Part shown: positions 4,533 to 53,185 of the stretch, one piece after another
Layout of the letters: each line of letters opens with the position of its first letter
Position numbering within the stretch: position 1 is the first letter of the stretch
Assembly (NCBI GenBank): GCA_038883135.1
Contig: JAVZMU010000002.1
Coordinates: 1-56,137, forward strand
Direction of reading: 5' to 3'
Length of the DNA stretch: 56,137 bases
DNA from: Nitrososphaerales archaeon
GTDB taxonomy: Archaea > Thermoproteota > Nitrososphaeria > Nitrososphaerales > JACAEJ01
The notes under the pieces: model-generated
The model's input: only the letters and a program-made list of their open reading frames with translations
What the model was told of the DNA's origin: nothing
Databases searched by the model: none
Made by a program: the position numbers and the translations under genes

Positions 4533-5254
4533 GAGAATTGATTAATGAAAAAGGTTTAAGGATAGATGGTAGAAGAGTAGATGAGTTAAGACCTTTAAGG
4601 ATAGAGGTCGGAGTACTAAAGAATGCTGATGGTTCTTCATATATAGAGATGGGTAAGAATAAGATAGTTGTTGCAGTTTACGGTCCAAAAGAAGTTCATC
4701 CGAAGCATCAAGCCCTACCTGATAGGTCAGTTCTAAGATGTAGATACCACATGGCTCCTTTTTCTGTAGATATTCGTAAACCTCCACAACCATCGAGACG
4801 TGAAATAGAAATATCAAAAGTGATAAGAGAAGCTCTTGAACCAGCCCTAATTCTTGAAGAATATCCAAGAACTGCTATAGATGTTTATTTAGAAGTATTA
4901 CAAGCGGATGGAGGCTCAAGGTGTGCCGGGATTACAGCTTCTGCTGTTGCCTTAGCTGATGCTGGTATATCTATGCGTGATATGGTTGTAGCATGTGCTG
5001 CTGGGAAGGTATCTGGTCAAGTAGTTCTAGATTTAAATGATGTAGAGGATAAAGAAGGAGAAGCTGATATGCCTGTTGCCATAATGCCAAATCTAGACCA
5101 AGTAACTCTACTTCAGTTGGATGGTAAATTAACATCTGAAGAGTTCGAGAAGGCTTTTGAGATGGCTGTAAATGCTTGTCGCGTTATCTATGAAGTTCAG
5201 AGAAAGGCATTGATAGATAAGTACTTTGGTAAAGCCGAGGTTGGTGAGGAATGA
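4529..5254 (+). CDS. rrp41: Exosome complex exonuclease Rrp41 (RNase PH fold)
   Basis: [20 protein letters not shown] and [11 protein letters not shown] motifs of RNase PH/Rrp41. TTG start 6 nt after AAGGTGAT. Confidence 0.93.
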
Positions 5255-6087
5255 TGTCAGCAGTAAAGAAGTCGATGGTTGTTGAGCAGTTAAGAAAAGC
5301 TCAGATGATAGAGCTTTTATCTAAGGAAAAAAGGTTGGATAATAGAGGTTTAATGGACTTTCGTCCTATCACCATAGAGACTGGCGTAATAGAGAGAGCT
5401 AATGGTTCAGCTAGAGTTCAAGTTGGAAACACTCAAGTTATAGCTGGTGTGAAAATAGAACTAGGAGAACCGTTCCCTGATGCACCTGATAAAGGACTTT
5501 TAGTAGTAAACACAGAAGTCTTACCTTTAGCTTCAGCATATGCAGAACCTGGTCCTCCTGATGAAGATGCTATAGAGTTAGCTAGAGTTGTTGATAGAGG
5601 AGTTAGAGAATCCCACATGATCGATCTATCCAAACTCGCGCTAATCCCTGGTAGAAAAGTATACGCTGTGTTTGTTGATGTTAATGTTTTGAATACTGAT
5701 GGAAACTTATTTGATGCTTCGTCATATGCTACAGTTGCTTCTCTTATTACAAGTAAAATGCCAAAATTTTACGTTGATGAAAATGGACAGATAAGACAAT
5801 CTAATGAGATTATTCCATTACCAATAAATGGTATTCCTATATCAATTACTATGGCAAGAATAGGCGATACGCTTATCGTAGATCCAACTTCTGAAGAGGA
5901 AGCTGTCATGGATGCAAGAATAACCTTTGTAGTAGATGAAGATGGAAATCTATGTGCTGGTCAAAAAGGTCAACCTGGAACGCTTAACTTCAATCAAGTT
6001 AAATTAGCAACTAATATAGCCAAAGCTAAAGCGAAAGAGATAAGAGAAATTATAAAAGGAGAGATCATGAAAAATGCCAAAGGCTAA
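5251..6087 (+). CDS. rrp42: Exosome complex subunit Rrp42
   Basis: RNase PH-like second subunit ([19 protein letters not shown]), translationally coupled to rrp41. Confidence 0.9.
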
Positions 6088-6304
6088 TAAGGGATTAAAA
6101 GGACTTGGTGCTAAGTATGGGTCAACTCTAAGAAAGAAGTATAGTAGAATATTTAGTATTTTAAAGATGAAGAGGAATTGTCCTAAATGTGGTTCATGGA
6201 ATTTGAAGAGAAAAAGCAGTGGCATATGGGAGTGTAAATCATGTGGCTTAGTTATTGCAGGAAGGGCTTATGATATTACCCCACCACCAATCTCTCCATC
6301 TTAA
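6074..6304 (+). CDS. rpl37ae: Ribosomal protein eL43 (L37Ae)
   Basis: GAKYGSTLRKKY plus a CPKC...CKSCG zinc ribbon. Conserved position after rrp42. Confidence 0.92.
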   Translation: MPKANKGLKGLGAKYGSTLRKKYSRIFSILKMKRNCPKCGSWNLKRKSSGIWECKSCGLVIAGRAYDITPPPISPS

Positions 6305-6316
6305 GAGAAAGAAAAT

Positions 6317-6568
6317 ATGATTAATGAACTAGACGCTAAGATAGAAGTTAATTTAGAAGAAGATTTAGCTAAAATTGCTTATTTTGCTCTAAAACCCGAT
6401 ATTGATAAAGCTCCAAAATCAAACTTATTAGTTAAAATCTCTTATGATAAAGATAAATTAATCATAAATCTAAAAGGAGACGATATATCTCGATTAAGAG
6501 CTGGGATAAATTCTTATCTAAGGCTGATAAACGTAATAATAAATACAATCAACTCTCTAAGAAAATAA
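6317..6568 (+). CDS. pcc1: KEOPS subunit Pcc1-like protein
   Basis: About 80 aa. The C-terminal LRAGINSYLRLINVIINTI resembles the Pcc1/CTAG helix, and the gene is in the superoperon context. Confidence 0.65.
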   Translation: MINELDAKIEVNLEEDLAKIAYFALKPDIDKAPKSNLLVKISYDKDKLIINLKGDDISRLRAGINSYLRLINVIINTINSLRK

Positions 6569-13770: not shown

Positions 13771-14490
13771 ATGAGCCAAAGAGAAGAGATTTTAAAAAAG
13801 TTAGCTGATGGGGTTATTCTGGGCGATCCAGAAGCTACACAGAAGGCAGCAGAAGAATGGGCAAAATTAGTCAAAGATGGAAAGGAGCAGGCTTATGTAG
13901 GCATAGTAGATGGTTTGGCAGCAGGTATGGAAATAGTTGGTAAGAAATATGAGTGTAAAGAATACTTCTTGCCAGAAGTTCTTTCATCAGCTGATGCTAT
14001 GTATGCTGGTCTCAACGTTCTACTACCGCTTATACCAAAGTCTGAAGCTAAAGCCAAAGGAACGATAGTTATAGGAGTAGTAGAAGGAGATGTACATGAT
14101 ATAGGCAAGAATATAGTCAAGGCGATGCTTACAGCAGCTGGTTATGATGTAGTAGATTTAGGAAGAGATGTACCATCAAAAGAATTTGTTCAAACAGCTC
14201 AGAAAGAAGGCGCACAAGTAATAGCTATGTCAACTTTAATGACACCTACACTTCTATCTATGAAAGAAGTTGAGGATAAGTTAAAGACTGTTGGACTAAA
14301 GGACAGAGTTAAGACTATTATTGGAGGCGGTACAGTAACTGAAGAATGGAGAAGGGAGATAGGATCAGATGCTTATGGAAAAGATGCAATGGAAGCTGTT
14401 GACAAAGTAAAGATGTTGATAGACCAAATAATGGGCGCTGTCAAGGCTATGAAAAAGGAAGAAGAAGAAAGACAGAAAACACAAAGTTAA
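13771..14490 (+). CDS. Cobalamin-binding corrinoid protein (MtmC/MtbC/MttC-like), no cognate substrate methyltransferase adjacent
   Basis: B12-binding cap plus Rossmann domain with the DxHxxG motif (GDVHDIGKNIV) and GYDVVDLGRDVP. Lys/Glu-rich tail. Confidence 0.85.
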   Translation: MSQREEILKKLADGVILGDPEATQKAAEEWAKLVKDGKEQAYVGIVDGLAAGMEIVGKKYECKEYFLPEVLSSADAMYAGLNVLLPLIPKSEAKAKGTIVIGVVEGDVHDIGKNIVKAMLTAAGYDVVDLGRDVPSKEFVQTAQKEGAQVIAMSTLMTPTLLSMKEVEDKLKTVGLKDRVKTIIGGGTVTEEWRREIGSDAYGKDAMEAVDKVKMLIDQIMGAVKAMKKEEEERQKTQS

Positions 14491-14508
14491 CAGTTCAGAC
14501 AAAATATC

Positions 14509-14523
14509 TTTTTTTTAAAAAAA
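14509..14523. terminator. Bidirectional oligo-T terminator between convergent genes
   Basis: A T8 run immediately followed by A7 (T7 on the other strand), exactly between the stop at 14490 (+) and the stop at 14535 (-). Confidence 0.5.
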
Positions 14524-14534
14524 GAATAGGGAGT

Positions 14535-15572
14535 TTACGTTTTTACCCCATACTTCTTAGTAGCTTCTACCATAGCTTTTATGTTTGCTGTTGGAGTTCT
14601 AGGAGCAAAACCACAACCTGGCTCAACGAAATCAACACCACTAGCGATTGCTACCTTCACCTCAGCTTCAACCTCTTCAGGTTTACCGAATAGTAAAGTA
14701 CGCTTTGAATTTATATTACCCAATATCTTCACATTACCTACGAGAGGTTTTATCTTAGCTATATTCACAGATTCTTCAATACTTATTCCATGATAACCAC
14801 ATTCTGCCATATCAGGGACTATAGCTTCAGCTTTTCCACATATATGTAAAAGTTTAAATCCATCGAGACTATCAGCCACTTCGATTAATGCAGGTTTAGC
14901 AAACTGTCTGAAAGCATCTGGACTTATTAGATCAGGAGAGGCGGTTGGATCACCGATTTGAACGATATGGGAACCTGCTTTATATTGTGCTTTAGCATAT
15001 TCTATAATGAACTCAGTTGCAAAATCTACGAAAGCCCTTACATAATTAGGCTTTTTCAATACCCATGTTAAAAATCTAGCTTCTCCAGCTAACATAGCTG
15101 CAAGAGTAAAAGGACCAAGAGCAAGACTCGAAATAGGTAGAAAATCACCAACCCTCTCTTTTAATATTTCTATTGCCTTTAATACAACTGGTATTCTTCC
15201 CAGTTCGAGTATGTTATCAGGCATTTTAAGTTCTTCAGGTGTACTAAAGACATGCTCAACGACTGCAGGAACAGAATCTACTTTTTCACCAAACTTTATC
15301 TTACACCCAAGAGCTTCAGGTTCTTCTACAAAATCAAAGGGAACCCTTACACATTCTAGTCCGGTAATTTCATAGCTTGCTATAGCAAGCTTAGCCATCT
15401 TCTCAGGGTCTTTATGAGCTTCTGGCCAATAAATTCCTGTAGCTTCTTGCATTTCTACATTTACTGTCCCTCCACAGCCTGCAAGGGACGTAGCAGGTAT
15501 TCTATCTACTTTCTCTCCTTTTAGTATTTTAAATGCTCTTTCTTTAGGAGTAAGTTCAACCATTTTTATCAC
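14535..15572 (-). CDS. mtaA: Methylcobamide:CoM methyltransferase family protein (MtaA/MtbA, uroporphyrinogen-decarboxylase fold)
   Basis: N-terminus LTPKERAFKILKGEKVDRIP. Zn-ligand motifs LLHICGK and VEPGCGFAP. Last gene of the mtaB-mtaC-mtaA string. Confidence 0.85.
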   Translation of the reverse strand: MIKMVELTPKERAFKILKGEKVDRIPATSLAGCGGTVNVEMQEATGIYWPEAHKDPEKMAKLAIASYEITGLECVRVPFDFVEEPEALGCKIKFGEKVDSVPAVVEHVFSTPEELKMPDNILELGRIPVVLKAIEILKERVGDFLPISSLALGPFTLAAMLAGEARFLTWVLKKPNYVRAFVDFATEFIIEYAKAQYKAGSHIVQIGDPTASPDLISPDAFRQFAKPALIEVADSLDGFKLLHICGKAEAIVPDMAECGYHGISIEESVNIAKIKPLVGNVKILGNINSKRTLLFGKPEEVEAEVKVAIASGVDFVEPGCGFAPRTPTANIKAMVEATKKYGVKT

Positions 15573-15684
15573 CCATTTTTGTTAAATGTGTTAGAATATT
15601 CAGATACACATAAAGTTTTTGCATTAAATTAAAATAAGGTTTTTAAAATAAAAAATGTGGGCATAGCGAAATTCGCTATGCTTT

Positions 15685-16506
15685 TTACCAACCTTTACCT
15701 GTAGAGTACTCTCCGACTACTTCGTTGTACTTTACTCTGAGATCTTTCCAGCCCATGCCTTTGAGGATAGCATCTGCGAGCTTTGGTGCGTGGTGGGCTT
15801 TAGCTCCGAAGAACCCAAGATCAAAGGATTCTACCCATTCCTTTGATAAGGCTCCTCCACCACAACCGAATGGAATATCTATACCTGCTGCTTTAAGCTT
15901 TTCAGCTATCTTTGGAAAAGCAGACATGGTAGTTGTCATGAGGGCTGTTCCTGTGAGCCATATAGGCTTCTCTTTCTTAACTGTATCTACTACTGTCTCT
16001 ATAGGTACATCTCTTCCTAGATCAACTACATCATAACCAGCTGCTCTTAAGAACATCACGACTAGGTTCTTTCCTATGTCGTGGGGATCGCCCTCAGCAA
16101 CGTGACAAACTACCTTGCCCTTCTTTTCTGTTGACTTTCCTAATGCCTTCTCACACTCAGCAATACCAGCCATCATAGCATCAGCTGATACCATAACGTT
16201 TGGTAGGAAGTATGTACCACTTGAATAAAGTGCACCTACTGCATCCATACCTTTAGCTAATCCCTTCTCTATTATATCAAGTGGCTTTATCGTTCTTAAT
16301 GCATCCTTAACCTTTGATATAACTAAGTCTGTATCTCCTTTTACTACCGCTAATGCAAGTGATTTGTATGGCTCTTCTTTTGGTACAGCACCTTTTACCT
16401 CTGGTGTCTCTTCAACTGGTATCGCAGGACCTTCTAGCTCTACGTTGTAGCGTCTAAATATGAAATCTGTATTTTTTATTTTTGGAAGTACCATTTTCTT
16501 TTTCAC
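15685..16506 (-). CDS. mtaC: Methanol corrinoid protein MtaC
   Basis: DxHxxG motif (GDPHDIGKNLV) and GYDVVDLGRDVP. Lies 3 nt downstream of mtaB. Confidence 0.85.
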   Translation of the reverse strand: MKKKMVLPKIKNTDFIFRRYNVELEGPAIPVEETPEVKGAVPKEEPYKSLALAVVKGDTDLVISKVKDALRTIKPLDIIEKGLAKGMDAVGALYSSGTYFLPNVMVSADAMMAGIAECEKALGKSTEKKGKVVCHVAEGDPHDIGKNLVVMFLRAAGYDVVDLGRDVPIETVVDTVKKEKPIWLTGTALMTTTMSAFPKIAEKLKAAGIDIPFGCGGGALSKEWVESFDLGFFGAKAHHAPKLADAILKGMGWKDLRVKYNEVVGEYSTGKGW

Positions 16507-16509
16507 CTC

Positions 16510-17913
16510 TTATAACCCATAGTTCTCTGGCTTAAAGTTAGGCACCTTTCTCTTGTAGTCTGCTATGCATTTCTCGACCCATCTTGGTGTCTCTGTTGTC
16601 ATAGCTTCGAGCTCAGCCATTGCTCTCTCAAGAGAGTCAAGCTCAAAGCGTGTCAAAACGACTTCTCTCTTCTCATGAGCTTCCTTCATTATCTTACCAG
16701 CTTCTAAGGCAGCTGCCCTAGCCCTCAAATATATATCCTTACCATACTCGACTAAGGCTTTTCCAATCCTCCAAGCATTGTCATATGATAGACAATAACC
16801 TTGTGGGTCTCTATATCTATCTGTAAGAGTGTATAAGTCTCTTAGAACTTTTGCTTGGCCTGTCTGAATAGCAGTATTCATTAAGGCTGCCTCCATAGCT
16901 GTTGCTTGAAGCCAGACTGCAGGAGTAGTTCCTCCAAACTCAGAGTGATACTCCACAGACTCATTGCTCCAAACATCACATACTGCAGCAATAGTGTTGC
17001 CCATTACATCACCATGGGCACATACAGCTTGCTTACCCTCTTGTGCACCAGGTCTACCTGATACAGCCTTCACAATAGGTCCTTCATAAGCACAATCCTT
17101 ATGAGGACCTACAGCACCACACTCATATGCTACTAGTGTTCTTGCAGCAGCTATTGCCCTACCCAGCATGGCTATTGTATGTGGAAAGTCGTGAGCTGTT
17201 AAGCCTCCTGCTACGAACATTAAAGTATTGGCACCACTGCAGTTAGTCTCTCCACCTGGATTTGTTGAATACTTGCTACATATTTTTACATTCCTATCCC
17301 AAACATACTCCATGTCTATGCTACCAAGGTATCCTATACCGAATAGGATTGCACGAATATCCTGCCTCATACATCCATAGTCAACTACTTCCTTGCCACC
17401 CATTGTCTCCATACATATGTCACTTGCACCATTCTTACAACACTCCTCAACAGTCTCAGCTATACGTCTATCATACTCTGAACCTAGAGCTTCGCGAAGA
17501 CCTCCTGGCTTTTCTGCAACTCTAATATCACCAACGGTCTGCCTTAGAGCTGCCTTCATTCCATACTTGCTCACATATTCTTCAATTATAGATGCTTGAA
17601 GGGCTGTTATCTCCCCTGCCCACTTTGGATTGTAAGTTTGCTGGAATACATGCTCTTGTTCAATCATGAAGAAAGGTATACCTATAGCAGCTGCTCTATC
17701 ACATGCATCTCTTGTTATCTTCTCATGTTCTGCCTTTAGTTTTTCCAAAGAATCTCCAGTTCCAGGTCTTGGTGCAACCTTAACCTCAGGGACTACGTAT
17801 CCTGCACCAAATTGTATGTTCCAATTCTTACAAAATACTGGATAAATTGCGTGTCCGAAAACCATGTCGTCAGGATCTGCATACGCCATTTTAGTATATC
17901 TGAATTTAACCAT
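16510..17913 (-). CDS. mtaB: Methanol:corrinoid methyltransferase MtaB
   Basis: Colinear with Methanosarcina MtaB as I recall it (MVKFRYTKMAYADPDDM..., GAGYVVPEV, SIDMEYVWD, VAYECGAVGPHKDCAYEG, FGGTT, KPENYGL). The track start at 17940 is TTG, and ATG at 17913 fits the homologous N-terminus. Confidence 0.92.
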   Translation of the reverse strand: MVKFRYTKMAYADPDDMVFGHAIYPVFCKNWNIQFGAGYVVPEVKVAPRPGTGDSLEKLKAEHEKITRDACDRAAAIGIPFFMIEQEHVFQQTYNPKWAGEITALQASIIEEYVSKYGMKAALRQTVGDIRVAEKPGGLREALGSEYDRRIAETVEECCKNGASDICMETMGGKEVVDYGCMRQDIRAILFGIGYLGSIDMEYVWDRNVKICSKYSTNPGGETNCSGANTLMFVAGGLTAHDFPHTIAMLGRAIAAARTLVAYECGAVGPHKDCAYEGPIVKAVSGRPGAQEGKQAVCAHGDVMGNTIAAVCDVWSNESVEYHSEFGGTTPAVWLQATAMEAALMNTAIQTGQAKVLRDLYTLTDRYRDPQGYCLSYDNAWRIGKALVEYGKDIYLRARAAALEAGKIMKEAHEKREVVLTRFELDSLERAMAELEAMTTETPRWVEKCIADYKRKVPNFKPENYGL

Positions 17914-17961
17914 TTTTGATCGTAATACAATATAGAGCAATAATACTTAAGGTTTATGGGT

Positions 17962-18073: not shown

Positions 18074-18523
18074 TTATATTATGTGAGTCATTTTCAACAT
18101 CATTTTTTCTTTAACCTTCTTGTTTATTATGTTAAGGTATCCACTCTTCTTAAGCTTCTTAACTAATTTATATAAAGTATCATAATACATATTAAAGGTT
18201 TTAGTTAATTCTAAGATAGATATATTTAATTGTAGCATAAATGCTACAAAAAACCAAACTTTTAATGGTACTCTAGATCTATAAAATATAGTTCCTGTCT
18301 TATCGTTGAATACGTAGCCACATCCTTTGCATAAATACTTTTGATATAAACCATAGTTTCCATACCTTATTATACCCTTAGATGAACAAGATGGGCATGT
18401 TATGCCATTAGGCCACTTTATTTCCCTTAAAATAGCTATACAATCTTCCTCTGTAAGTATAAAAGATTCAATGGTTAACATTAAGCTGGAAAAGTTATGA
18501 AGAATATTATGAGAATATGTCAA
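18074..18523 (-). CDS. IS1595-type transposase N-terminal zinc-ribbon/HTH module, no DDE domain
   Basis: EEDCIAILREIKWPNGITCPSCSS...YLCKGCGYVFNDKTGTIFYRSRVPLKVWFFV matches the N-terminal module of IS1595/ISXO2-like transposases. The ORF ends after about 149 aa. Confidence 0.65.
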   Translation of the reverse strand: MTYSHNILHNFSSLMLTIESFILTEEDCIAILREIKWPNGITCPSCSSKGIIRYGNYGLYQKYLCKGCGYVFNDKTGTIFYRSRVPLKVWFFVAFMLQLNISILELTKTFNMYYDTLYKLVKKLKKSGYLNIINKKVKEKMMLKMTHII

Positions 18524-27135: not shown

Positions 27136-27389
27136 ATCGAATATTTTTTCTTTTAAGAATTTTAACCTTATAATTTTTGAAAAACTTAATCGTATAAATA
27201 TTGATAGCATATTCAAATCTTAACATGTCTAATCTAATTACACTTTAGATGCTTGTGATGAGAAGAGATACTATTCAATATCCTACCCTAGATTACATCA
27301 AATGAAATTAAATAATATCTTATGTTATAAGGTAGCATAACATAAAGGTAATCAAAAAATTAATACAGAAAAGATTGCTATATTAAGAA

Positions 27390-27680
27390 GGGTGCGAGTC
27401 GGTGGGTGGGCGACGGGGCTATGCCCTGAGGAAGCTCCTCTCTCCATGCAGAAGCGCGGTGCCGTGAGGCACAACCAGAGATGGTTGGCAACAAAACAGA
27501 AACGATATCCGAGCCAGGGTATACGATGATAGAACTCTTGAGGTTCCTGGGTAGGAATGAAACGGTTGTCCCGCGCGGAGCAAGACCAAAAAAGGTCTAT
27601 GAGTTCTGCACGAGACCTAGGTAGGTCGCTAAGCTGAATCCCACCTAAAACAAAAAGAGGGCTACTGCCGACACGCACCC
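27390..27680 (+). ncRNA. rnpB: RNase P RNA (archaeal type A-like)
   Basis: G+C-rich island in AT-rich DNA. The P1 helix pairs GGGTGCGAGTCGG with CCGACACGCACCC. Conserved blocks are GAGGAAGCTCC (CR-I), GGCAACAAAACAGAAAC, GGGTAGGAATGAAACGG, GGAGCAAGACCAAAAAAGG and CTGAATCCCACCTAA (CR-V-like), colinear with E. coli and archaeal RNase P RNA. Confidence 0.9.
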
Positions 27681-27760
27681 AAAAATAGAAAAATTTTCTT
27701 TTGGGAATCATCTATGAAGTAGTATTAAAATTTATTAAGCAGAGTTTATACTGGACACAT

Positions 27761-33614: not shown

Positions 33615-34235
33615 TTAATGGATCAGAACTAAATTAACATTTAGCTTTAGATTTCTTTTAGAGCGTTTTTCTTTGAGAACATTAAGTCCCCTTGTAGTTT
33701 AATTAATACCTTTAAGCGTTAATCTTCCTAAAATAAGCAAATCTTTTATTATGGTATTATGGGATACTCAAATATATTTTTGTCATATAGGATAATGATA
33801 AAGTTCCCATTCATAAACCTTAGAGTAAGTGAATCTTAGACTCATGTTTTCTGCTCCAAAATATAATCTTCTCTACATAGCAACTTTATTAAAGCAATCT
33901 AGTTTGAAAAGAGGACGAGACTTCCTGGTTTTCAATATTATCTAGCTTAGAAAGATTAGCGATTATAGCTGAAAAGGTTAAAGAATTAATCCAAATATTA
34001 AAATTACTTAGAATTATCACCATGCTAAAAGAATCCTAAAGGTTCCTTTAAGCGAGATATACAGCGTGATTAATTACTTCTAAAATTTTGAGAATATTAA
34101 AAGACGAATATAAACTTAGAATTGCGTCTAATTAAGCAATTTTCTAAAGCATGGATTCAGCCTTTCAGAAGAAAGAAAGCCATAGTTTAAAAGAACTTTT
34201 AAATCTATGTTGCTTAAAAATACTGTTAAATCATT

Positions 34236-34832
34236 ATGAACGAATATAAGGCAAGAAACATAATAGAAAATGCATCTCTATGCTTCGATGGGATGGCTAG
34301 AGCTCTAGAGAAAGCTATTATTGAAGAATATTGTTCCAAATGTTTAAGATCTAAAGGAAAAGAAGGCTGTGAACTTCTTCCACGTGAAACTGTTTTTGCA
34401 TTATTTAATGGTATCTGGAATGGATTAGTATCATGGGCTTCTAATAGTTCATTATCTTTAGAACAATGGTGGCCAGCTTTAGTATGTTTTGTCTGTCAGA
34501 TCACAGAAAGAAAGCCTATCATAAGAATGTCGAGTAAAGAGTGCATGAAACCTACTATAGAGGAAGGTGATCTACTGCTTATTAAAAGGTCTTTTGATCC
34601 TCCTACTATAAATGTTGGTGATATAGCTGTATTGAGAGCAGGTCCAGGAGAGTGTCATATAAGAAGGATAGTCGAGACTGTTGAGAAAGAAGGTTTAATC
34701 TACGTTAGAACGAAAGGTGACTTTGAACTAACTCCTGATAAGGAGCTTACATCAGCTGAGAGGATCTGTGGTATAGTTGTTCAAATAATTAAAAAAGATA
34801 CAGAATTATGGAAAAAGTTAATGGATAAGTAA
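34236..34832 (+). CDS. Multi-Cys N-domain fused to a signal-peptidase/LexA-fold (clan SF) domain with Cys at the nucleophile position, paralog 1
   Basis: KECMKPTIEEGDLLLIKR aligns with the SMEPT..GD box of S26/S24 peptidases, with Ser replaced by Cys. VGDIAVL...CHIRRIVE fits the Sec11-type xxVHRV box, and TKGDFELTPD..ERICGIVV fits the KGDNN..D..IxG box. The N-domain has C16-x16-C33-x2-C36-x8-C45 and C84-x2-C87. Confidence 0.55.
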   Translation: MNEYKARNIIENASLCFDGMARALEKAIIEEYCSKCLRSKGKEGCELLPRETVFALFNGIWNGLVSWASNSSLSLEQWWPALVCFVCQITERKPIIRMSSKECMKPTIEEGDLLLIKRSFDPPTINVGDIAVLRAGPGECHIRRIVETVEKEGLIYVRTKGDFELTPDKELTSAERICGIVVQIIKKDTELWKKLMDK

Positions 34833-34838
34833 TTCAAA

Positions 34839-35453
34839 ATGTCCCAAGAGAATAATATACAAAACATAATCATGAGATACTTAGCAATATGCCAAAGAGC
34901 ACTTAAAGATTTATTAAGTTCCATTCTAGAAATTATTAAAGAAAACTGCTCTGATTGTGATATGAGAAAGGATTGTCCACCATTTTTTATTTATGCTGAA
35001 GCATATAGAATCATGCTTATGTTCCTCTTAGAGTTTATTACTCATGCTGTTGATAACAAATCAGCAAAAGATGAAAAGATCTTTGCATTAATTAAATGTG
35101 AGATGTGCAGACAAGTAACTGAAACGAATTCTTTCCTATTCGCTATGGAAAAGTGTATGGAACCTTTAATTAATGAAGGAGACTTACTGATAGTAAAACG
35201 TAAGTTACCAATGGATGAATTAAAAGAAGGGGATTTAATAGTTTATCCAAGCTTCAGATGGTTACAAAGCGGAAAAATTCCTGTTTGTGTTGTTCACAAA
35301 ATAATGAGAATAGAAGGTAATCGCTTCGTTTTAACAGATACTAGCGGGCATGTGGAGAGTGTTGAGAAACATCTTGTTTGTGGAAAGGTTGTTAAAACAA
35401 TAAAAAAAGGTAGTAATCTTTGGAAAGAATTTTCACAAGTAATTTTAATGTGA
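34839..35453 (+). CDS. Multi-Cys N-domain fused to a signal-peptidase/LexA-fold domain with Cys at the nucleophile position, paralog 2 (more diverged)
   Basis: Same architecture 6 nt downstream: C18-x18-C37-x2-C40-x5-C46, C87-x2-C90, EKCMEPLINEGDLLIVKR, GDLIVY and CVVHKIMRIEG. The KGD box has degenerated to LTDTSGH. Confidence 0.55.
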   Translation: MSQENNIQNIIMRYLAICQRALKDLLSSILEIIKENCSDCDMRKDCPPFFIYAEAYRIMLMFLLEFITHAVDNKSAKDEKIFALIKCEMCRQVTETNSFLFAMEKCMEPLINEGDLLIVKRKLPMDELKEGDLIVYPSFRWLQSGKIPVCVVHKIMRIEGNRFVLTDTSGHVESVEKHLVCGKVVKTIKKGSNLWKEFSQVILM

Positions 35454-35456
35454 TTT

Positions 35457-36221
35457 TTATATTGTGAACCATATGTAGATTGATAAATAAAGCACTATAA
35501 GGCTGAAGATAAATGAATAAGTTAACTTAACTCCTTTAGATATATTCAAGCCTCCTGCAAGAAGTATAGCACTCCAAATTTGCATAGGGACAAGAATCAC
35601 ATTTGAGAATTGAAAATTAGAAATATAAGAGTAAATGTGAAGAGGTATAAAACTTAAAGCTATAGCAGTAAAAAGCTCTAACTCTCCTCCAATCTTTACT
35701 TCTGTTGTAATGAATGAGAATAACTCAGTAAGAATGGAAGTTAATAACCATCCAGTTACAATGGTTGATAACACAGGATCGATTATCTCTTTACTTGGTA
35801 CTGATAGTAGAAACTGATTTGAACTCGAGTATAGGTTTGCGATTGAACCAAAAGTTAAGGCTAATATTATTGTGATAATGCAACTCTGCTTTGATTGTGT
35901 TACAAGCTTAAAGATAGGTGCAAGAGTTATGATAGAAAGAGATTTTGCAGCAAGGTTTATCTCCTCTTTTACCAAAGTTTTCATACCCATCTTTTCTAAT
36001 AAGCGCCTACCTTTTTCAGTCAGACTATATTTCCTATTAGAATCTCTAGCTACATAATCCTTCAAGTAGTAAAGATGATAATAAATCGAGCCTGTGCTTA
36101 ATCCTGTCTCACGTTTTATTTCTGTGAAGCTTACGCTCCCCTTCTCCCCAATTATTTCAAGAATTCTAACCCTTGCGGGACTATTTGTTATGTCGGAGAG
36201 CTTATCATCCTTCAATGGCAC
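35457..36221 (-). CDS. Membrane-tethered ArsR-like winged-helix regulator (N-terminal wHTH plus about 5 TM helices)
   Basis: ARVRILEIIGEKGSVSFTEIKRETGLSTGSIYYHLYYLKDYVARD..KYSLTEKGRRLL, followed by hydrophobic helices to the C-terminus. GTG start. Confidence 0.7.
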   Translation of the reverse strand: MPLKDDKLSDITNSPARVRILEIIGEKGSVSFTEIKRETGLSTGSIYYHLYYLKDYVARDSNRKYSLTEKGRRLLEKMGMKTLVKEEINLAAKSLSIITLAPIFKLVTQSKQSCIITIILALTFGSIANLYSSSNQFLLSVPSKEIIDPVLSTIVTGWLLTSILTELFSFITTEVKIGGELELFTAIALSFIPLHIYSYISNFQFSNVILVPMQIWSAILLAGGLNISKGVKLTYSFIFSLIVLYLSIYIWFTI

Positions 36222-36300
36222 TCTTTCTTTAAAACCTTTTTAAAGTAAAAGTATTTATTTTATACGATATACGACTTTGTTCATAATAGGTTAAAGTCCC

Positions 36301-36765
36301 TTGCCTGAATTCAAATATAGCTTCATAGGCTACGACCCGCTCACACAAGTTAGAGCTAGCGGGAGAGAGGTAGATGTATCCCCAAAAAAGGCTAGAGAAA
36401 TCTGTGCTCTAATAAAAGGCATGAGCTTATCTAAAGCTAAAAAGTTCTTAGAAGATGTTATAAACAAGAAGCAAGTAGTACCTTTTAGAAGGTACAAGAA
36501 AGAAGTACCACATAAAAGTTCTCAATTTAAATTTTATGCAGGAGGCTATCCTGTAAAGGCTGCAGAAGAAATACTTAAAGTCGTTAAGAATCTTGAGGCT
36601 AATGCAGAATTTAAGGGGTTAGATACTGAAAAGCTGATTATAATTCATGCTGCAGTTATGAAGGGAGTGAAAATTAAAAGGTACATACCTAGAGCTTATG
36701 GTCGTTCTTCACCAAAATTCAATACTTTAGTGCATATAGAACTAGTAGGAAAGGAGGCTTTATGA
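36301..36765 (+). CDS. rpl22: Ribosomal protein uL22
   Basis: VRASGREVDVSPKKAREICALIKGMSLSKAKKFLEDV. TTG start. Confidence 0.92.
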   Translation: MPEFKYSFIGYDPLTQVRASGREVDVSPKKAREICALIKGMSLSKAKKFLEDVINKKQVVPFRRYKKEVPHKSSQFKFYAGGYPVKAAEEILKVVKNLEANAEFKGLDTEKLIIIHAAVMKGVKIKRYIPRAYGRSSPKFNTLVHIELVGKEAL

Positions 36766-37412
36766 TGTCAGCAATAAAAAATATTATGAAGAATTATGCC
36801 AAAAATGCTGAGCTAGATGAATTTCTACAAAAAGAATTGGCTAATGCAGGATATGGAGGAGTAGATGTTTTTAAAACGCCTATAGGGACAAGGATAACAA
36901 TTTTTGTTACAAGACCTGGTCTAGTTATAGGGAGGCGTGGCATGGGAATTAAAGACCTTTCCTCTTTAATAGAGAAAAAATTTGGCTTCCCTAATCCTCA
37001 AATCTCAGTTTTAGAAGTAGAGGTTCCAGAGCTCAACCCTATGGTCATGGCTAATAGAATAGCTCAAAACATTGTTAGAGGAGGAGCCTTCAGAAAGTCG
37101 GCTCTTTGGGCTTTAAACTCCATAATGAGTGCTGGTGCAATGGGTGCGGAGATAATTATTTCTGGAAAGATAAGGAGTGAGAGAGCGCATTATGAAAAGT
37201 ATAGAGCTGGAGTTGTCCCTAAGAGCGGGGATCCTGCATTAAAGGTTGTTAGAGAGGCTACAACTCATGTACTACTCAAAATGGGACTTTATGGGATAAA
37301 GGTAAGAATTGCTTTAAAAGATGTTTTACCTCCTGAAGTTGAAATAATAGAAAAGAAGCTTGAAGAAAGTACTCAAAAGGAGGAAAAAGTTAATGCCGAA
37401 ACTAAAGATTGA
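36762..37412 (+). CDS. rps3: Ribosomal protein uS3
   Basis: KH domain TPIGTRITIFVTRPGLVIGRRGMGIKDL. Follows rpl22 with a 4-nt overlap. Confidence 0.93.
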   Translation: MMSAIKNIMKNYAKNAELDEFLQKELANAGYGGVDVFKTPIGTRITIFVTRPGLVIGRRGMGIKDLSSLIEKKFGFPNPQISVLEVEVPELNPMVMANRIAQNIVRGGAFRKSALWALNSIMSAGAMGAEIIISGKIRSERAHYEKYRAGVVPKSGDPALKVVREATTHVLLKMGLYGIKVRIALKDVLPPEVEIIEKKLEESTQKEEKVNAETKD

Positions 37413-37590
37413 TGAGTTAAGAAAACTAAAGGATGAAGAGCTTAAAGAAAAGCTTTTTGAATTAAAAGCTGAATTGATAAAGTTAAAGAATGCAGCAAAA
37501 AGAGGTACTTTAGGAAAAGAGACAGGAAAGATTCGAGCTATAAGAAAAAACATAGCAAGAATTCTTACTATAATTAATGAGAGAAAGTAA
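37393..37590 (+). CDS. rpl29: Ribosomal protein uL29
   Basis: MPKLKIDELRKLKDEELKEKLFELKAELIKLK. I prefer ATG at 37393 (Met12 of the track ORF). Confidence 0.9.
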   Translation: MPKLKIDELRKLKDEELKEKLFELKAELIKLKNAAKRGTLGKETGKIRAIRKNIARILTIINERK

Positions 37591-37617
37591 GATTTTGAAA
37601 AGAATACTAAGTTTATT

Positions 37618-38214
37618 TTATCTTGATGCCATAGCTATTCTCTCTTGTTCATTCTTCTTCTTTATAGCGTAACTATTCACATCCTTATTTGCAGCCATTA
37701 TTATCTCATCTGCTAAAGCCTCTTCTATTGTTTTTGGATTAGAGAAACTAGCTTCTCTCGCTCCTTCTGTTATGAACCTTAAAGCAAGATCTAACCTTCT
37801 CAATGGAGATATATCTACTGAGATATGATATACTACACCACCATAGCTTATTCTCGTTGTATCTTCGTTTGGAGAAGCGTTCTCTACAGCACGAACAAGA
37901 TACTCTATAGGGTTACCGCCGGTCTTTAAGTGAATTATATCAAAGGCAGTCTTTACTATGTTTATGGCTCTTGCCTTTTTCCCTCCCATCCTACCTGTAT
38001 TTTTAGCATATTTTCTACCGAAGTGCATAAGATTGTTAACTAAGCGTTCTACTATGTTCACTTCAGCCTTTGCAAACTTACGATGCTCATGTCTTCCCAT
38101 TGATGTAGGCACAATTATAGGTTTAAGAGAGATTACTCTCTCTAAGCCCTTATCCTTAACCTTAACTTCACTAAAATCCCATTTTCTAAATAGTAATAGC
38201 TTCTCCATAGCCAT
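37618..38214 (-). CDS. rps7: Ribosomal protein uS7
   Basis: Archaeal S7 sequence ([13 protein letters not shown]...[17 protein letters not shown]), downstream of rps12. Confidence 0.93.
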
Positions 38215-38220
38215 TTTTTC

Positions 38221-38673
38221 TCACCTTTTAGGCTTCTCTTTTTTACCTAAAACGAGCATATTTAAAGAGACTCCATTCACCATAGACACTTTCCATCTCA
38301 CTCCAGGTATATCTCCCATAGACCTTCCCATAGAACCTCCTATACCCTCAACTATAACTTCATCATGCTCATCCACATAGTTTAGTGCACCATCTCCAGG
38401 AAGGAAAGCTGTTATCTGCTTACCATTCTTTACCAATTGAACACGAACACACTTTCTTATAGCAGAGTTAGGTTGTTTAGATTCAATTCCAACCTTCTCT
38501 AAGACTATTGCTCTAGCTTGTGGAGCTCCTTCAAGAGGGTCTGCCTTCTTATCAAGCATTAATAGCCTACGCTTATAATATTTATCAGACCATCTTAACT
38601 TCTGCCTTTTCTTCCTCAGTTTTCTTCCAGCGTTCTCCCCTCTAGGAGATTTTGATTTAGACAATATAACCAC
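38221..38673 (-). CDS. rps12: Ribosomal protein uS12
   Basis: [30 protein letters not shown] is the hallmark S12 block. Confidence 0.95.
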
Positions 38674-51778: not shown

Positions 51779-53185
51779 TTATAAAACTGGTATCAATTTT
51801 ACCTCTTCACTAGTAACTGAGATGTTGTATAATCGTGTTTCTGGTCTAACCCCATAGATAAAGATAGCCCCATCAATATTCTTCAAAACAAAATGTTTAT
51901 CACACATTTGTGATACTTGATCAGCAACCTTTTGCCCCCTCTTAGTTATAGCAATATAAACATCTCCCCACTCATTTATTGATGATAAATTCGTTGCAAC
52001 GTTAAGTAATGTCGCATTATATCCCAATGAATATTCTATAAAATCTGTAGACATTATGTGGCAAATAGGTTGTTTTTCTCTTCCCACTATTTTAGATCTT
52101 ACTGCAAACCAAGATTCAAGGGTCTTATCTAAGTTTTTTAAATGAACAAAAAATCTATTTTCTGGAACAGGTCGCTCAAAAATTGCCTTTTGAGCAATCA
52201 TCATATTGTTCACTTTATCACCAACAATTTCCTTTAAACTTTTAATCTGTTCCTCAACACTTAATCCTTCTAACGGGGTTATTATCAATCCTCTTTCAAG
52301 TAATAATGTGTTAACCATTAAAGGAAAGATCAAATAGTGAAGATGTTCGCTACCTACTCCATATTCTAAAGTAAATATTATTGATGTACCTAACTTATAG
52401 CCTCCGCCTAAAATCTTATCAAAATCTGGTATACCACTTGATATTTTATCCTTTTCAGGATCAGGAATTATCTTAAAATTCTTAAGGTATATTAGCTTAA
52501 TAGGTGGGAAGTATCTAAAATGCCCTTCATGTAAAGTAAAAGCGTAATTCTTCCTTTTCCTTACAGTACCTTGAAGCTTGTTAATCTTAATTTCCCTTAC
52601 TGATCGTTTCTCTAATAAGTTTCTCCAAACCCTTCCATATTTTGCTTCACTAAATACATTTATATCAGAGAGAGTTACCACTCCATCTGCTAAATAGTCG
52701 AGAGTGGATAGATTAGGATTCTCGCTAACAAGGATAATATTAGCACCCTTTTCGCTAATCAAACTCTCTAAAAGTCCTAACATTTTCTCTGCCTCTTCAG
52801 ATCCTACTTCTCTCACAATACCTTCCCAACTATCTATTATTACCAAAGGGTTGTTTAATTTCGTGATAAGGTCATATACACGCTCAAATGGTAATGAATA
52901 CATTTTCATCTTTGCATCTATTATTGTAATGCCCTTTTTATTCGCCAATAAAACACTCTCCGGTTTGATTACATCCTTTAACCAAGTAAAAGAAGCAAAC
53001 AACCTCTTTGGCGTTACTCTTGTAGTCACATAGACTCCATTCCTACTTTCTCTAAAGTGATTTAACAACTCGAGACTTAATATCGTCTTCCCAGTACCAG
53101 GTTTACCCTTAATTAAAAGAATATTACTTTCTTGAGATAAGAAATTTATTAGCTCTTTCGGAATATTACTTTCAGACAATTCCAT
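51779..53185 (-). CDS. GvpD/KaiC-like two-domain RecA-superfamily ATPase. The second domain lacks a P-loop.
   Basis: N-domain: IPKELINFLSQESNILLIKGKPGTGKT (Walker A) and LVIIDSWEG (Walker B). C-domain: ISSGIPDFDKILGGGYKLGTSIIFTLEYGVGSE, which has the KaiC-type entry motif with the GxxGxGK[ST] eroded. Confidence 0.65.
   Translation of the reverse strand: MELSESNIPKELINFLSQESNILLIKGKPGTGKTILSLELLNHFRESRNGVYVTTRVTPKRLFASFTWLKDVIKPESVLLANKKGITIIDAKMKMYSLPFERVYDLITKLNNPLVIIDSWEGIVREVGSEEAEKMLGLLESLISEKGANIILVSENPNLSTLDYLADGVVTLSDINVFSEAKYGRVWRNLLEKRSVREIKINKLQGTVRKRKNYAFTLHEGHFRYFPPIKLIYLKNFKIIPDPEKDKISSGIPDFDKILGGGYKLGTSIIFTLEYGVGSEHLHYLIFPLMVNTLLLERGLIITPLEGLSVEEQIKSLKEIVGDKVNNMMIAQKAIFERPVPENRFFVHLKNLDKTLESWFAVRSKIVGREKQPICHIMSTDFIEYSLGYNATLLNVATNLSSINEWGDVYIAITKRGQKVADQVSQMCDKHFVLKNIDGAIFIYGVRPETRLYNISVTSEEVKLIPVL

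Follow-up and report, generated by a model that had tools for sequence, protein, structure and literature searches.

A tandem pair of predicted soluble, signal-peptidase-like proteins with cysteine at the nucleophile position in methanogen-type Nitrososphaeria

The window, by which we mean the whole 56,137-nt stretch analysed here (contig JAVZMU010000002.1 of the Nitrososphaerales archaeon assembly GCA_038883135.1), contains two adjacent genes, paralog 1 (par1; positions 34236..34832, + strand, 198 aa) and paralog 2 (par2; 34839..35453, + strand, 204 aa), whose products join a Cys-bearing N-terminal domain to a domain of the Sec11/archaeal-type signal peptidase family (S26B), with Cys at the position of the nucleophilic Ser. 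This Cys variant is real, rare and undescribed. We tentatively favour the interpretation that par1 and par2 make up a cytoplasmic, metal-binding, thiol-peptidase-like heteromer, in which metal binding, pairing of the subunits and proteolysis are all predicted properties.

An S26B-like domain in a tandem gene pair

The two genes are co-oriented and separated by a 6 nt spacer (TAA-TTCAAA-ATG), and their products share one architecture, delimited in par1 as an N-domain (aa 1-92) followed by the S26B-like domain (aa 93-198). They are paralogs, showing 27% identity over 187 aa (BLASTP, E 2e-14), and both the open reading frames (ORFs) and this comparison agree with an earlier interpretation of the DNA made from its letters (hereafter, the sequence-only reading), which had described adjacent tandem paralogs of 198 and 204 aa, 6 nt apart. 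Nonsynonymous to synonymous substitution ratios (dN/dS), calculated against orthologs from three other genomes, were 0.12-0.14 for par1 and 0.07-0.10 for par2, indicating that both are real genes under purifying selection. A 15-nt block resembling a B recognition element (BRE) and TATA box, AAAGAACTTTTAAAT (34190..34204, + strand), lies 32 nt 5' of the par1 ATG and does not vary among the window and the orthologous loci L007, L008 and L011, while the rest of the spacer diverges. This block probably works as a promoter, and par1-par2 look like a self-contained transcription unit with a promoter of its own.

The C-terminal halves of par1 and par2 matched the NCBIfam model TIGR02228 (sigpep_I_arch) with E values of 4.4e-10 and 1.1e-7, respectively, under its 51.85-bit cutoff, and Pfam Peptidase_S24 with sub-threshold E values of 0.0017 and 0.025; a LexA model was matched only at E 0.12. 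Searches of PDB with phmmer retrieved human SEC11A (9rjb, 7p2p) at E about 1e-3. When a 12-sequence family alignment was compared by hhalign with 18 canonical S26B peptidases, the two profiles aligned over residues 93-198 at 99.3% and E 1.6e-20, and we consider this profile-profile comparison decisive for homology to S26B. The S26B boxes B-E are kept in order, with xCMxP instead of xSMxP, followed by GD..V, VHR(V), TKGD..D and GKVV, and the groove motifs CM[K/E]P..EGDL, GD..V and CG.VV are invariant between the paralogs despite their 27% identity. AlphaFold2 (AF2) models of the C-domain had predicted local distance difference test (pLDDT) values of about 85 in par1 and 85-90 in par2 (par2 mean, 72). 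The best PDB neighbours in Foldseek were SEC11A/C and SpsB for the par1 model, and UmuD' (E 7.5e-4, TM 0.57), the lambda CI C-terminal domain, SEC11C and SipA for the par2 model, all of them members of clan SF. Both the hhalign and the Foldseek matches agree with the sequence-only reading, which had recognized a Sec11/archaeal-type domain of clan SF in the C-terminal half. The fold relationship itself is not new, because NCBI already tags the orthologs generically as 'S24/S26 family peptidase', and some of them as 'S26 family signal peptidase'.

A 19-residue Kyte-Doolittle scan detected no transmembrane (TM) anchor at either end of par1 or par2. Maximum hydropathy was 0.93 in par1 and 1.55 in par2, the latter corresponding to an amphipathic helix with E, R and E among its residues, as compared with 3.18 in a canonical archaeal signal peptidase and 2.1 in a neighbouring membrane protein of the window. 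The canonical enzyme (L009, from Promethearchaeota, recovered in our genome scan) was used as positive control and displays an N-terminal TM helix, SGSMKP, VVHRV and TKGDNN..D boxes, and a C-terminal TM helix. These values are in line with the absence of a signal-anchor helix previously noticed in both copies, and both proteins are probably soluble and cytoplasmic.

Catalytic positions, cysteines and relatives

Cys103 of par1 (codon TGC, 34542..34544, + strand) falls at the S26B Ser-nucleophile position according to phmmer against SEC11A, hhalign and its alignment column, and Cys106 of par2 (codon TGT, 35154..35156, + strand) occupies the same position. Both residues pair with the nucleophilic Ser in every alignment made, and the corresponding column 179 of the family alignment A2 has Cys throughout the Cys-type members and Ser throughout the Ser-type relatives. 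The Cys is present in both paralogs, in all their orthologs and in P0016, a more distant par1-type protein. The replacement of Ser by Cys that the sequence-only reading had reported for both copies is, therefore, borne out by phmmer, hhalign and the alignments.

The triad of archaeal type I signal peptidases is Ser/His/Asp (PMC4343526). Its equivalents are Cys103/Arg143/Asp168 in par1, which keeps the KGD box (D162), and Cys106/His153/His171 in par2, where a 4-residue deletion takes out the KGD box. Arg143 (codon 34662..34664, + strand) was assigned to the catalytic His/Lys position by hhalign column mapping and ortholog sequences; P0016 also has Arg at the catalytic-His position, and Arg and Asp are kept in par1-type proteins across 41% identity. 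His153 (codon 35295..35297, + strand), at the general-base position, lies in a VVHKI box that matches the VHRV box of Sec11 and is kept in all six par2 orthologs. The Sec11-type His, previously considered retained in both copies, is thus present in par2 (VVH153KI) but not in par1, in which R143 is the aligned residue, whereas H141 is two residues upstream and is mostly Arg in the orthologs (P0002, P0003, P0006, P0007, P0008 and the L024 copy). Likewise, the proposal of a catalytic/non-catalytic pair was right in that par2 lacks the KGD box, but not in its direction, as par2 alone keeps the His, and par1 keeps the Asp and not the His. The paralogs have degenerated in complementary ways, Cys/Arg/Asp versus Cys/His/His, with a complete triad in neither.

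Each paralog contains nine Cys at corresponding positions, eight of which never vary among par1, par2 and P0016 (numbered as in par1: C33, C36, C45, C84, C87, C103, C140 and C178), a significant excess (P=8e-6) considering that only 35 of 179 columns (20%) are invariant among these proteins. Additionally, par1 and par2 are the most Cys-rich long ORFs of the window (4.5% Cys versus a background of 1.2%). The N-domain set of par1 (C33, C36, C45, C84 and C87; 34332..34496, + strand) is a putative metal site, and the peptidase domain holds two invariant Cys besides that of the nucleophile position (C140/C150 and C178/C181 in par1/par2), which had been overlooked in the sequence-only reading. The Cys spacings that it listed are correct, but the first Cys, C16, is not conserved, being Y or R in some par1 orthologs and absent from P0016, and the conserved set consists of eight invariant Cys rather than of four plus two. 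The resemblance to a Wbl-type Fe-S motif does not hold either: it rests on this non-conserved first Cys, the x5 spacing occurs only in par2 (x8 elsewhere), and there was no WhiB/Wbl match in Pfam at E<=10. Nor did Pfam scans return any Fe-S or Zn family match, and the canonical Fe-S motif CX2CX2CX3C is absent. In an anaerobic host of methanogen type (PMC9478090), we find metal ligation more plausible than disulfides, and a disulfide-stabilised thermophile protein was judged unlikely.

In the AF2 models, the first ~92-95 residues form three long helices at low to moderate confidence (pLDDT 40-69), and the linker is likewise of low confidence. The N-domain is acidic (pI 5.4), and neither a profile of eight N-domains compared with PDB sequences nor each member compared with Pfam yielded anything significant; the best matches, IL-4 and a Pol IV/V subunit, were rejected as noise (both with E about 0.3). 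The earlier statement that no described family shows this combination is thus upheld for the N-domain, without Pfam or PDB match, and in that the combination is very rare, but not for the fold, already labelled S24/S26 by NCBI.

An exhaustive profile search among 1.84 billion representatives identified the Cys-type in only three 50%-identity clusters, corresponding to par1-type proteins, par2-type proteins and P0016, which is of par1 type (41% identity) and the only homolog of that type outside the close clade. Four distant full-length relatives (P0020, P0077, P0125 and P0036) share an N-domain with the pattern helix-CxxC-x5-8-C-helix and a C-terminal IKKG..LWK helix, and carry ordinary Ser boxes (GESMRP, GSMSP, SSMSP and KSMEP). 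A VHRV-type His box is found in P0020, P0125 and P0036, and TKGD..D is restricted to P0020 and P0125. Hydropathy maxima of 1.08 in P0125 and 0.85 in P0077 mark these two as soluble, and P0020 may keep a weak hydrophobic helix at the site of the second CxxC of the Cys-type. The remaining ~300 matches comprised the catalytic domain only and were ordinary anchored signal peptidases. We conclude that the family is a soluble offshoot of S26B and, since its distant relatives of the same architecture carry an ordinary Ser, that the Cys is derived from Ser. C33, C36 and C45 are common to the Ser-type relatives and ancestral, and C84 and C87 occur only in the Cys-type clade; the Ser to Cys change arose together with four new Cys (C84, C87, C140 and C178) in one clade.

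A metagenome scan with P0016 gave no matches, and a rescan with the Cys-type alignment produced only three further loci, all close orthologs. PADLOC defence models did not match par1, par2, P0016, P0125 or P0036, and PHROGs returned only weak matches to S24 repressor C-domains (phrog_4 at 1.5e-5). The sole match in the viral scan, from contig L021, was discarded as an ordinary phage S24 repressor with a winged helix-turn-helix (wHTH) and a GDSMEP box. As a separate observation, the Ser-type gene for P0036, which encodes a longer Cys-bearing N-region, ends a tightly overlapping operon with a Cas4/PDDEXK nuclease gene (L020, 2052-4516); a Rad51-like gene lies nearby on the opposite strand, and the contig resembles an archaeal virus or mobile element.

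Distribution, host and gene neighbourhood

Orthologs of the pair were present in 3 of 185,579 species-representative genomes, all three of them Nitrososphaeria or Nitrososphaerales metagenome-assembled genomes. The isolate name of one of these, JZ2_bin.220247, matches that of JZ-2-bin_220, 'Ca. Methylarchaeum tengchongensis' (order Ca. Methylarchaeales), which is a thermophile and a methyl-reducing methanogen (PMC9478090). Cys-type members occur only in methanogenic Nitrososphaeria resembling Ca. Methylarchaeum and in one other lineage, represented by one contig.

The window contains a complete methanol methyltransferase cluster with a second corrinoid protein (13771-17940 region), composed of mtaA (14535-15572), mtaC (15685-16506) and mtaB (16510-17940; NF040651, E 4e-208), all on the - strand, and of the gene for the additional corrinoid protein, which is divergent from them (13771-14490, + strand). 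This cluster suggests that the host is a methyl-reducing methanogen. It adjoins an IS1-like transposase fragment (18074-18523, - strand) and has a raised GC content (0.38-0.41 versus about 0.32), and was possibly acquired horizontally. The host is a hot-spring, anaerobic methanogen-type archaeon.

In the seven loci seen, par1 and par2 are always in tandem and both flanks vary, the pair being the only constant unit. The gene order in the six other loci is g179, Toprim, a B12-binding radical SAM (rSAM) gene, par1 and par2, with an intact rSAM gene of 484-489 aa. At the same position, within a 620-bp gap 5' of par1 (33615-34235), all that is left in the window is a decayed piece of the rSAM N-terminus (33798-34041, + strand), which tblastn matches over aa 1-17 (65% identity) and aa 23-113 (35% identity; E 2.7e-4). 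In L024, a gene for a 533-aa secreted protein (4867-6468) is inserted between rSAM and par1; its product combines NosD/PbH1-like beta-helix repeats (NNTAN.N..GI.L) with a TM anchor at the C-terminus. We downgraded the rSAM linkage as a functional clue because of the remnant in the window, the insertion in L024 and the pair's own promoter; differences in the 3' flank weaken it as well.

On the 3' side, a block comprising the genes for a DUF7347 wHTH-membrane protein, L22, S3, L29, S7 and S12 (window 35457-38673) is inverted with respect to L011 (8964-12216), and a VIT1-like gene found 3' of par2 in other genomes is absent from the window. The convergent neighbour of par2 (35457-36221, - strand) encodes a DUF7347 winged-HTH joined to a polytopic membrane domain that weakly resembles Yip1; its product is 84% identical in a related genome, but does not adjoin the pair there. 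The gene for P0016 (locus L004, 619-2223) is located 4 bp 3' of a divergent URO-D/MtaA-like gene (Pfam URO-D, E 4e-7) and is convergent with a true MtaA gene, whose product is 64% identical to the MtaA of the window; its 3.5-kb contig, of 52% GC, contains no par2-type gene or other family member. Elsewhere in the window, we located a full-length archaeal RNase P RNA (RF00373, 232 bits) at 27394-27676 (+ strand), which, like the mta cluster, suits a host of this kind and is overlapped on the opposite strand by a probably spurious 119-aa ORF (27352-27711), and a KaiC/GvpD-like P-loop ATPase gene at 51779-53185 (- strand; GvpD_P-loop, E 5e-18).

Interpretations of the pair and comparison with known systems

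Par1 and par2 descend from a Sec11/archaeal-type (S26B) signal peptidase and have lost both membrane anchors. In the heteromer interpretation, the ancestral protein, of a kind still represented by the rare distant relatives, was a peptidase that had this N-domain and a Ser/His/Asp triad; in the present lineage, Cys replaced the nucleophile and four more Cys were gained simultaneously. The N-domain Cys and the new Cys would ligate Zn or Fe-S in one or two centres, which might either staple the former anchor helix to the peptidase fold or sense redox or metal, and the conserved groove would still bind a specific cytoplasmic peptide or protein. With its Cys106-His153 dyad, par2 would be the likely catalytic thiol-peptidase subunit, and par1 (Cys/Arg/Asp) would be its degenerate partner, regulating it or presenting substrates. 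Par2 could have lost the KGD/Asp box because a thiolate-imidazolium dyad needs no Asp; Cys/His dyads that have no Asp operate among PA-clan cysteine proteases. An engineered S90C leader peptidase of E. coli is also reported to be active. In all three Cys-type lineages the nucleophile position is fixed as Cys, a nucleophilic residue rather than an arbitrary one, and the general base is replaced by nothing but basic residues, His in par2 and Arg in both par1 and P0016, which counts in favour of a thiol-peptidase-like pair.

Several points weigh against this interpretation. Neither paralog has the full catalytic triad, and par1-type proteins, including P0016, keep the Cys without the His, so that Cys-His catalysis alone cannot explain Cys conservation. 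Furthermore, the joint emergence of five Cys suggests that Cys103 could itself be a metal ligand, and the modelled N-domains are of low confidence (pLDDT 40-69). The most far-reaching version, that the pair is the first natural Cys-His thiol peptidase of clan SF, a cytoplasmic two-subunit enzyme of methanogenic Nitrososphaeria with self- or target proteolysis gated by a redox- or metal-sensitive N-domain Cys cluster, we regard as unlikely.

Nearly as likely as the thiol-peptidase heteromer, and also a tentative proposal, is that both proteins are non-catalytic pseudo-peptidases similar to SipA, with the S26 fold serving only as a peptide-binding or scaffold module and the eight Cys, that of the former nucleophile position among them, arranged in two metal centres (Zn or [4Fe-4S]) of four Cys each, whose role would be structural, redox or electron transfer. 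The complementary decay, in which par1 and P0016 exchanged His for Arg and par2 lost Asp/KGD, is what would be expected once catalysis is unselected. The gain of C84, C87, C103, C140 and C178 together in one clade, the retention of Cys without His in par1-type proteins, the agreement of eight Cys with two sets of four ligands and an anaerobic methanogen host rich in Fe-S proteins all point in the same direction. SipA, which is also among the Foldseek matches, provides a precedent of an S26-fold pseudo-peptidase that retains its cleft (PMC4049620). Conversely, Ser to Cys is the one substitution that preserves nucleophilicity, the His of par2 is at the exact position, and par1-type proteins keep a basic residue and the Asp across 41% identity; moreover, there is no CX2CX2CX3C motif and no match to Fe-S or Zn families. 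The fold and the groove motifs are kept in the pair, but the residues that replaced the catalytic ones, Cys and either His or Arg, are capable of the chemistry.

A role as accessory factors for corrinoid/radical-SAM chemistry, such as maturation, handling of metals or cofactors, or presentation of peptides to B12-rSAM or MtaA-type enzymes, would be a biological role combinable with either a thiol-peptidase or a pseudo-peptidase mechanism, and seems to us rather unlikely. It would account for the B12-rSAM gene directly 5' of the pair in six of seven Nitrososphaeria loci, for the position of P0016, 4 bp 3' of a URO-D-like gene and adjoining a true MtaA gene, and for the mtaB, mtaC, mtaA and extra corrinoid protein genes of the window genome. 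However, the pair is intact in the window though its rSAM gene decayed to a remnant, a gene for an unrelated 533-aa secreted protein separates the two in L024, and the pair has its own conserved promoter block; in addition, the rSAM-linked loci are all close relatives (about 80-89% identity), giving synteny little weight, and there are only two independent contexts. A LexA/CI-like self-cleaving transcriptional regulator, the analogy drawn in the sequence-only reading, is quite improbable; its N-domain would have to bind DNA or sense a signal, and its clan-SF domain to cut the linker. The layout of an N-domain followed by a clan-SF domain, the weak matches to phage repressor C-domains (phrog_4 at 1.5e-5), and the presence of UmuD' and lambda CI among the best structural matches would fit it. 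Yet the affinity is to S26B and not to S24 (TIGR02228 at 4e-10 versus LexA at 0.12), the TKGD and VHR boxes being S26B features, the N-domain has an acidic pI of 5.4, and Pfam returned no HTH/wHTH match (E<=10 for full proteins, E<=1 for N-domains). There is no Ser-Lys dyad or Lys base, the pairs being Cys/Arg in par1 and Cys/His in par2, the linkers QITERKPIIRMSSKEC and QVTETNSFLFAMEKC contain no AG or CG dipeptide as a cleavage site, and a real phage S24 repressor (L021), with its wHTH and GDSMEP box, is very different. As to ordinary type I signal peptidases that were mis-read, the NCBI label 'S26 family signal peptidase' on some orthologs and the best profile match, sigpep_I_arch, would suit them, but par1 and par2 have no TM anchor at either end and no Ser nucleophile, and score under all curated cutoffs; the canonical enzyme L009 shows precisely the parts that are missing (N-TM, SGSMKP, VVHRV, TKGDNN..D and C-TM). 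This alternative is excluded at the sequence level, and its probability is negligible.

To our knowledge, clan SF, which includes LexA and the signal peptidases, has been treated as a purely serine clan, and we found neither natural Cys variants of clan SF nor the S90C leader peptidase and LexA S119C variants in the searchable literature. Neither profile libraries nor the searchable literature gave us any description of the combination of a soluble architecture that includes this N-domain, a natural, fixed Cys in place of the nucleophilic Ser, complementary triad decay in a tandem pair and an eight-Cys signature. If active, the natural, fixed Cys with a correct His in par2 would extend clan SF to thiol chemistry, and the far-reaching version with gated proteolysis, if true, would make the pair an archaeal functional counterpart, derived from S26B, of the signal-triggered cleavage switches of clan SF. 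If inactive, the pair would provide a further case of a protease fold that came to serve as a metal-binding scaffold. The family also shows that soluble, probably cytoplasmic proteins, both Ser-type and Cys-type, have descended from archaeal-type signal peptidases; these are absent from the review of this group (PMC4343526). The impact is limited by the very narrow, uncultured lineage of the Cys-type (Ca. Methylarchaeum-like methanogens and one other contig).

Sec11 and the archaeal type I signal peptidases (S26B; TIGR02228; 7p2p, 9rjb) share with the pair a homologous fold, the order of the boxes and, at triad positions, the His of par2 and the Asp of par1. Unlike them, the pair lacks both anchors and a complete triad, has Cys for Ser and scores under the family cutoffs, and possesses an extra Cys-bearing helical N-domain of ~92 aa and four extra invariant Cys. 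The Ser-type relatives (P0125, P0077, P0020 and P0036) have the same architecture as the pair but are without C84, C87, C140 and C178; they are unnamed metagenomic singletons on short contigs, one in a context resembling a mobile genetic element with Cas4. LexA, UmuD and lambda CI (S24) are similar in their clan-SF fold, in being soluble and cytoplasmic, and in the succession of N-domain and peptidase domain, but have a Ser-Lys dyad, a basic HTH or wHTH N-domain and self-cleavage at Ala-Gly or Cys-Gly, none of which was found in the pair. Two paralogous S26 subunits work together in the mitochondrial inner-membrane peptidase Imp1/Imp2, which differs from the pair in that both are membrane-bound Ser/Lys enzymes with complete active sites. 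Finally, SipA/LepA of Streptococcus pyogenes (4n31; PMC4049620) has, like the pair, an S26 fold with altered catalytic residues, together with a preserved peptide-binding cleft, which is also predicted for the pair, and sets the precedent for a non-proteolytic, peptide-binding S26 fold (PMC4049620); it differs in being a membrane-anchored, extracellular protein of the bacterial S26A type, with Asp and Gly, neither nucleophilic nor basic, at the catalytic positions, that has no Cys-rich domain and is not part of a tandem pair.

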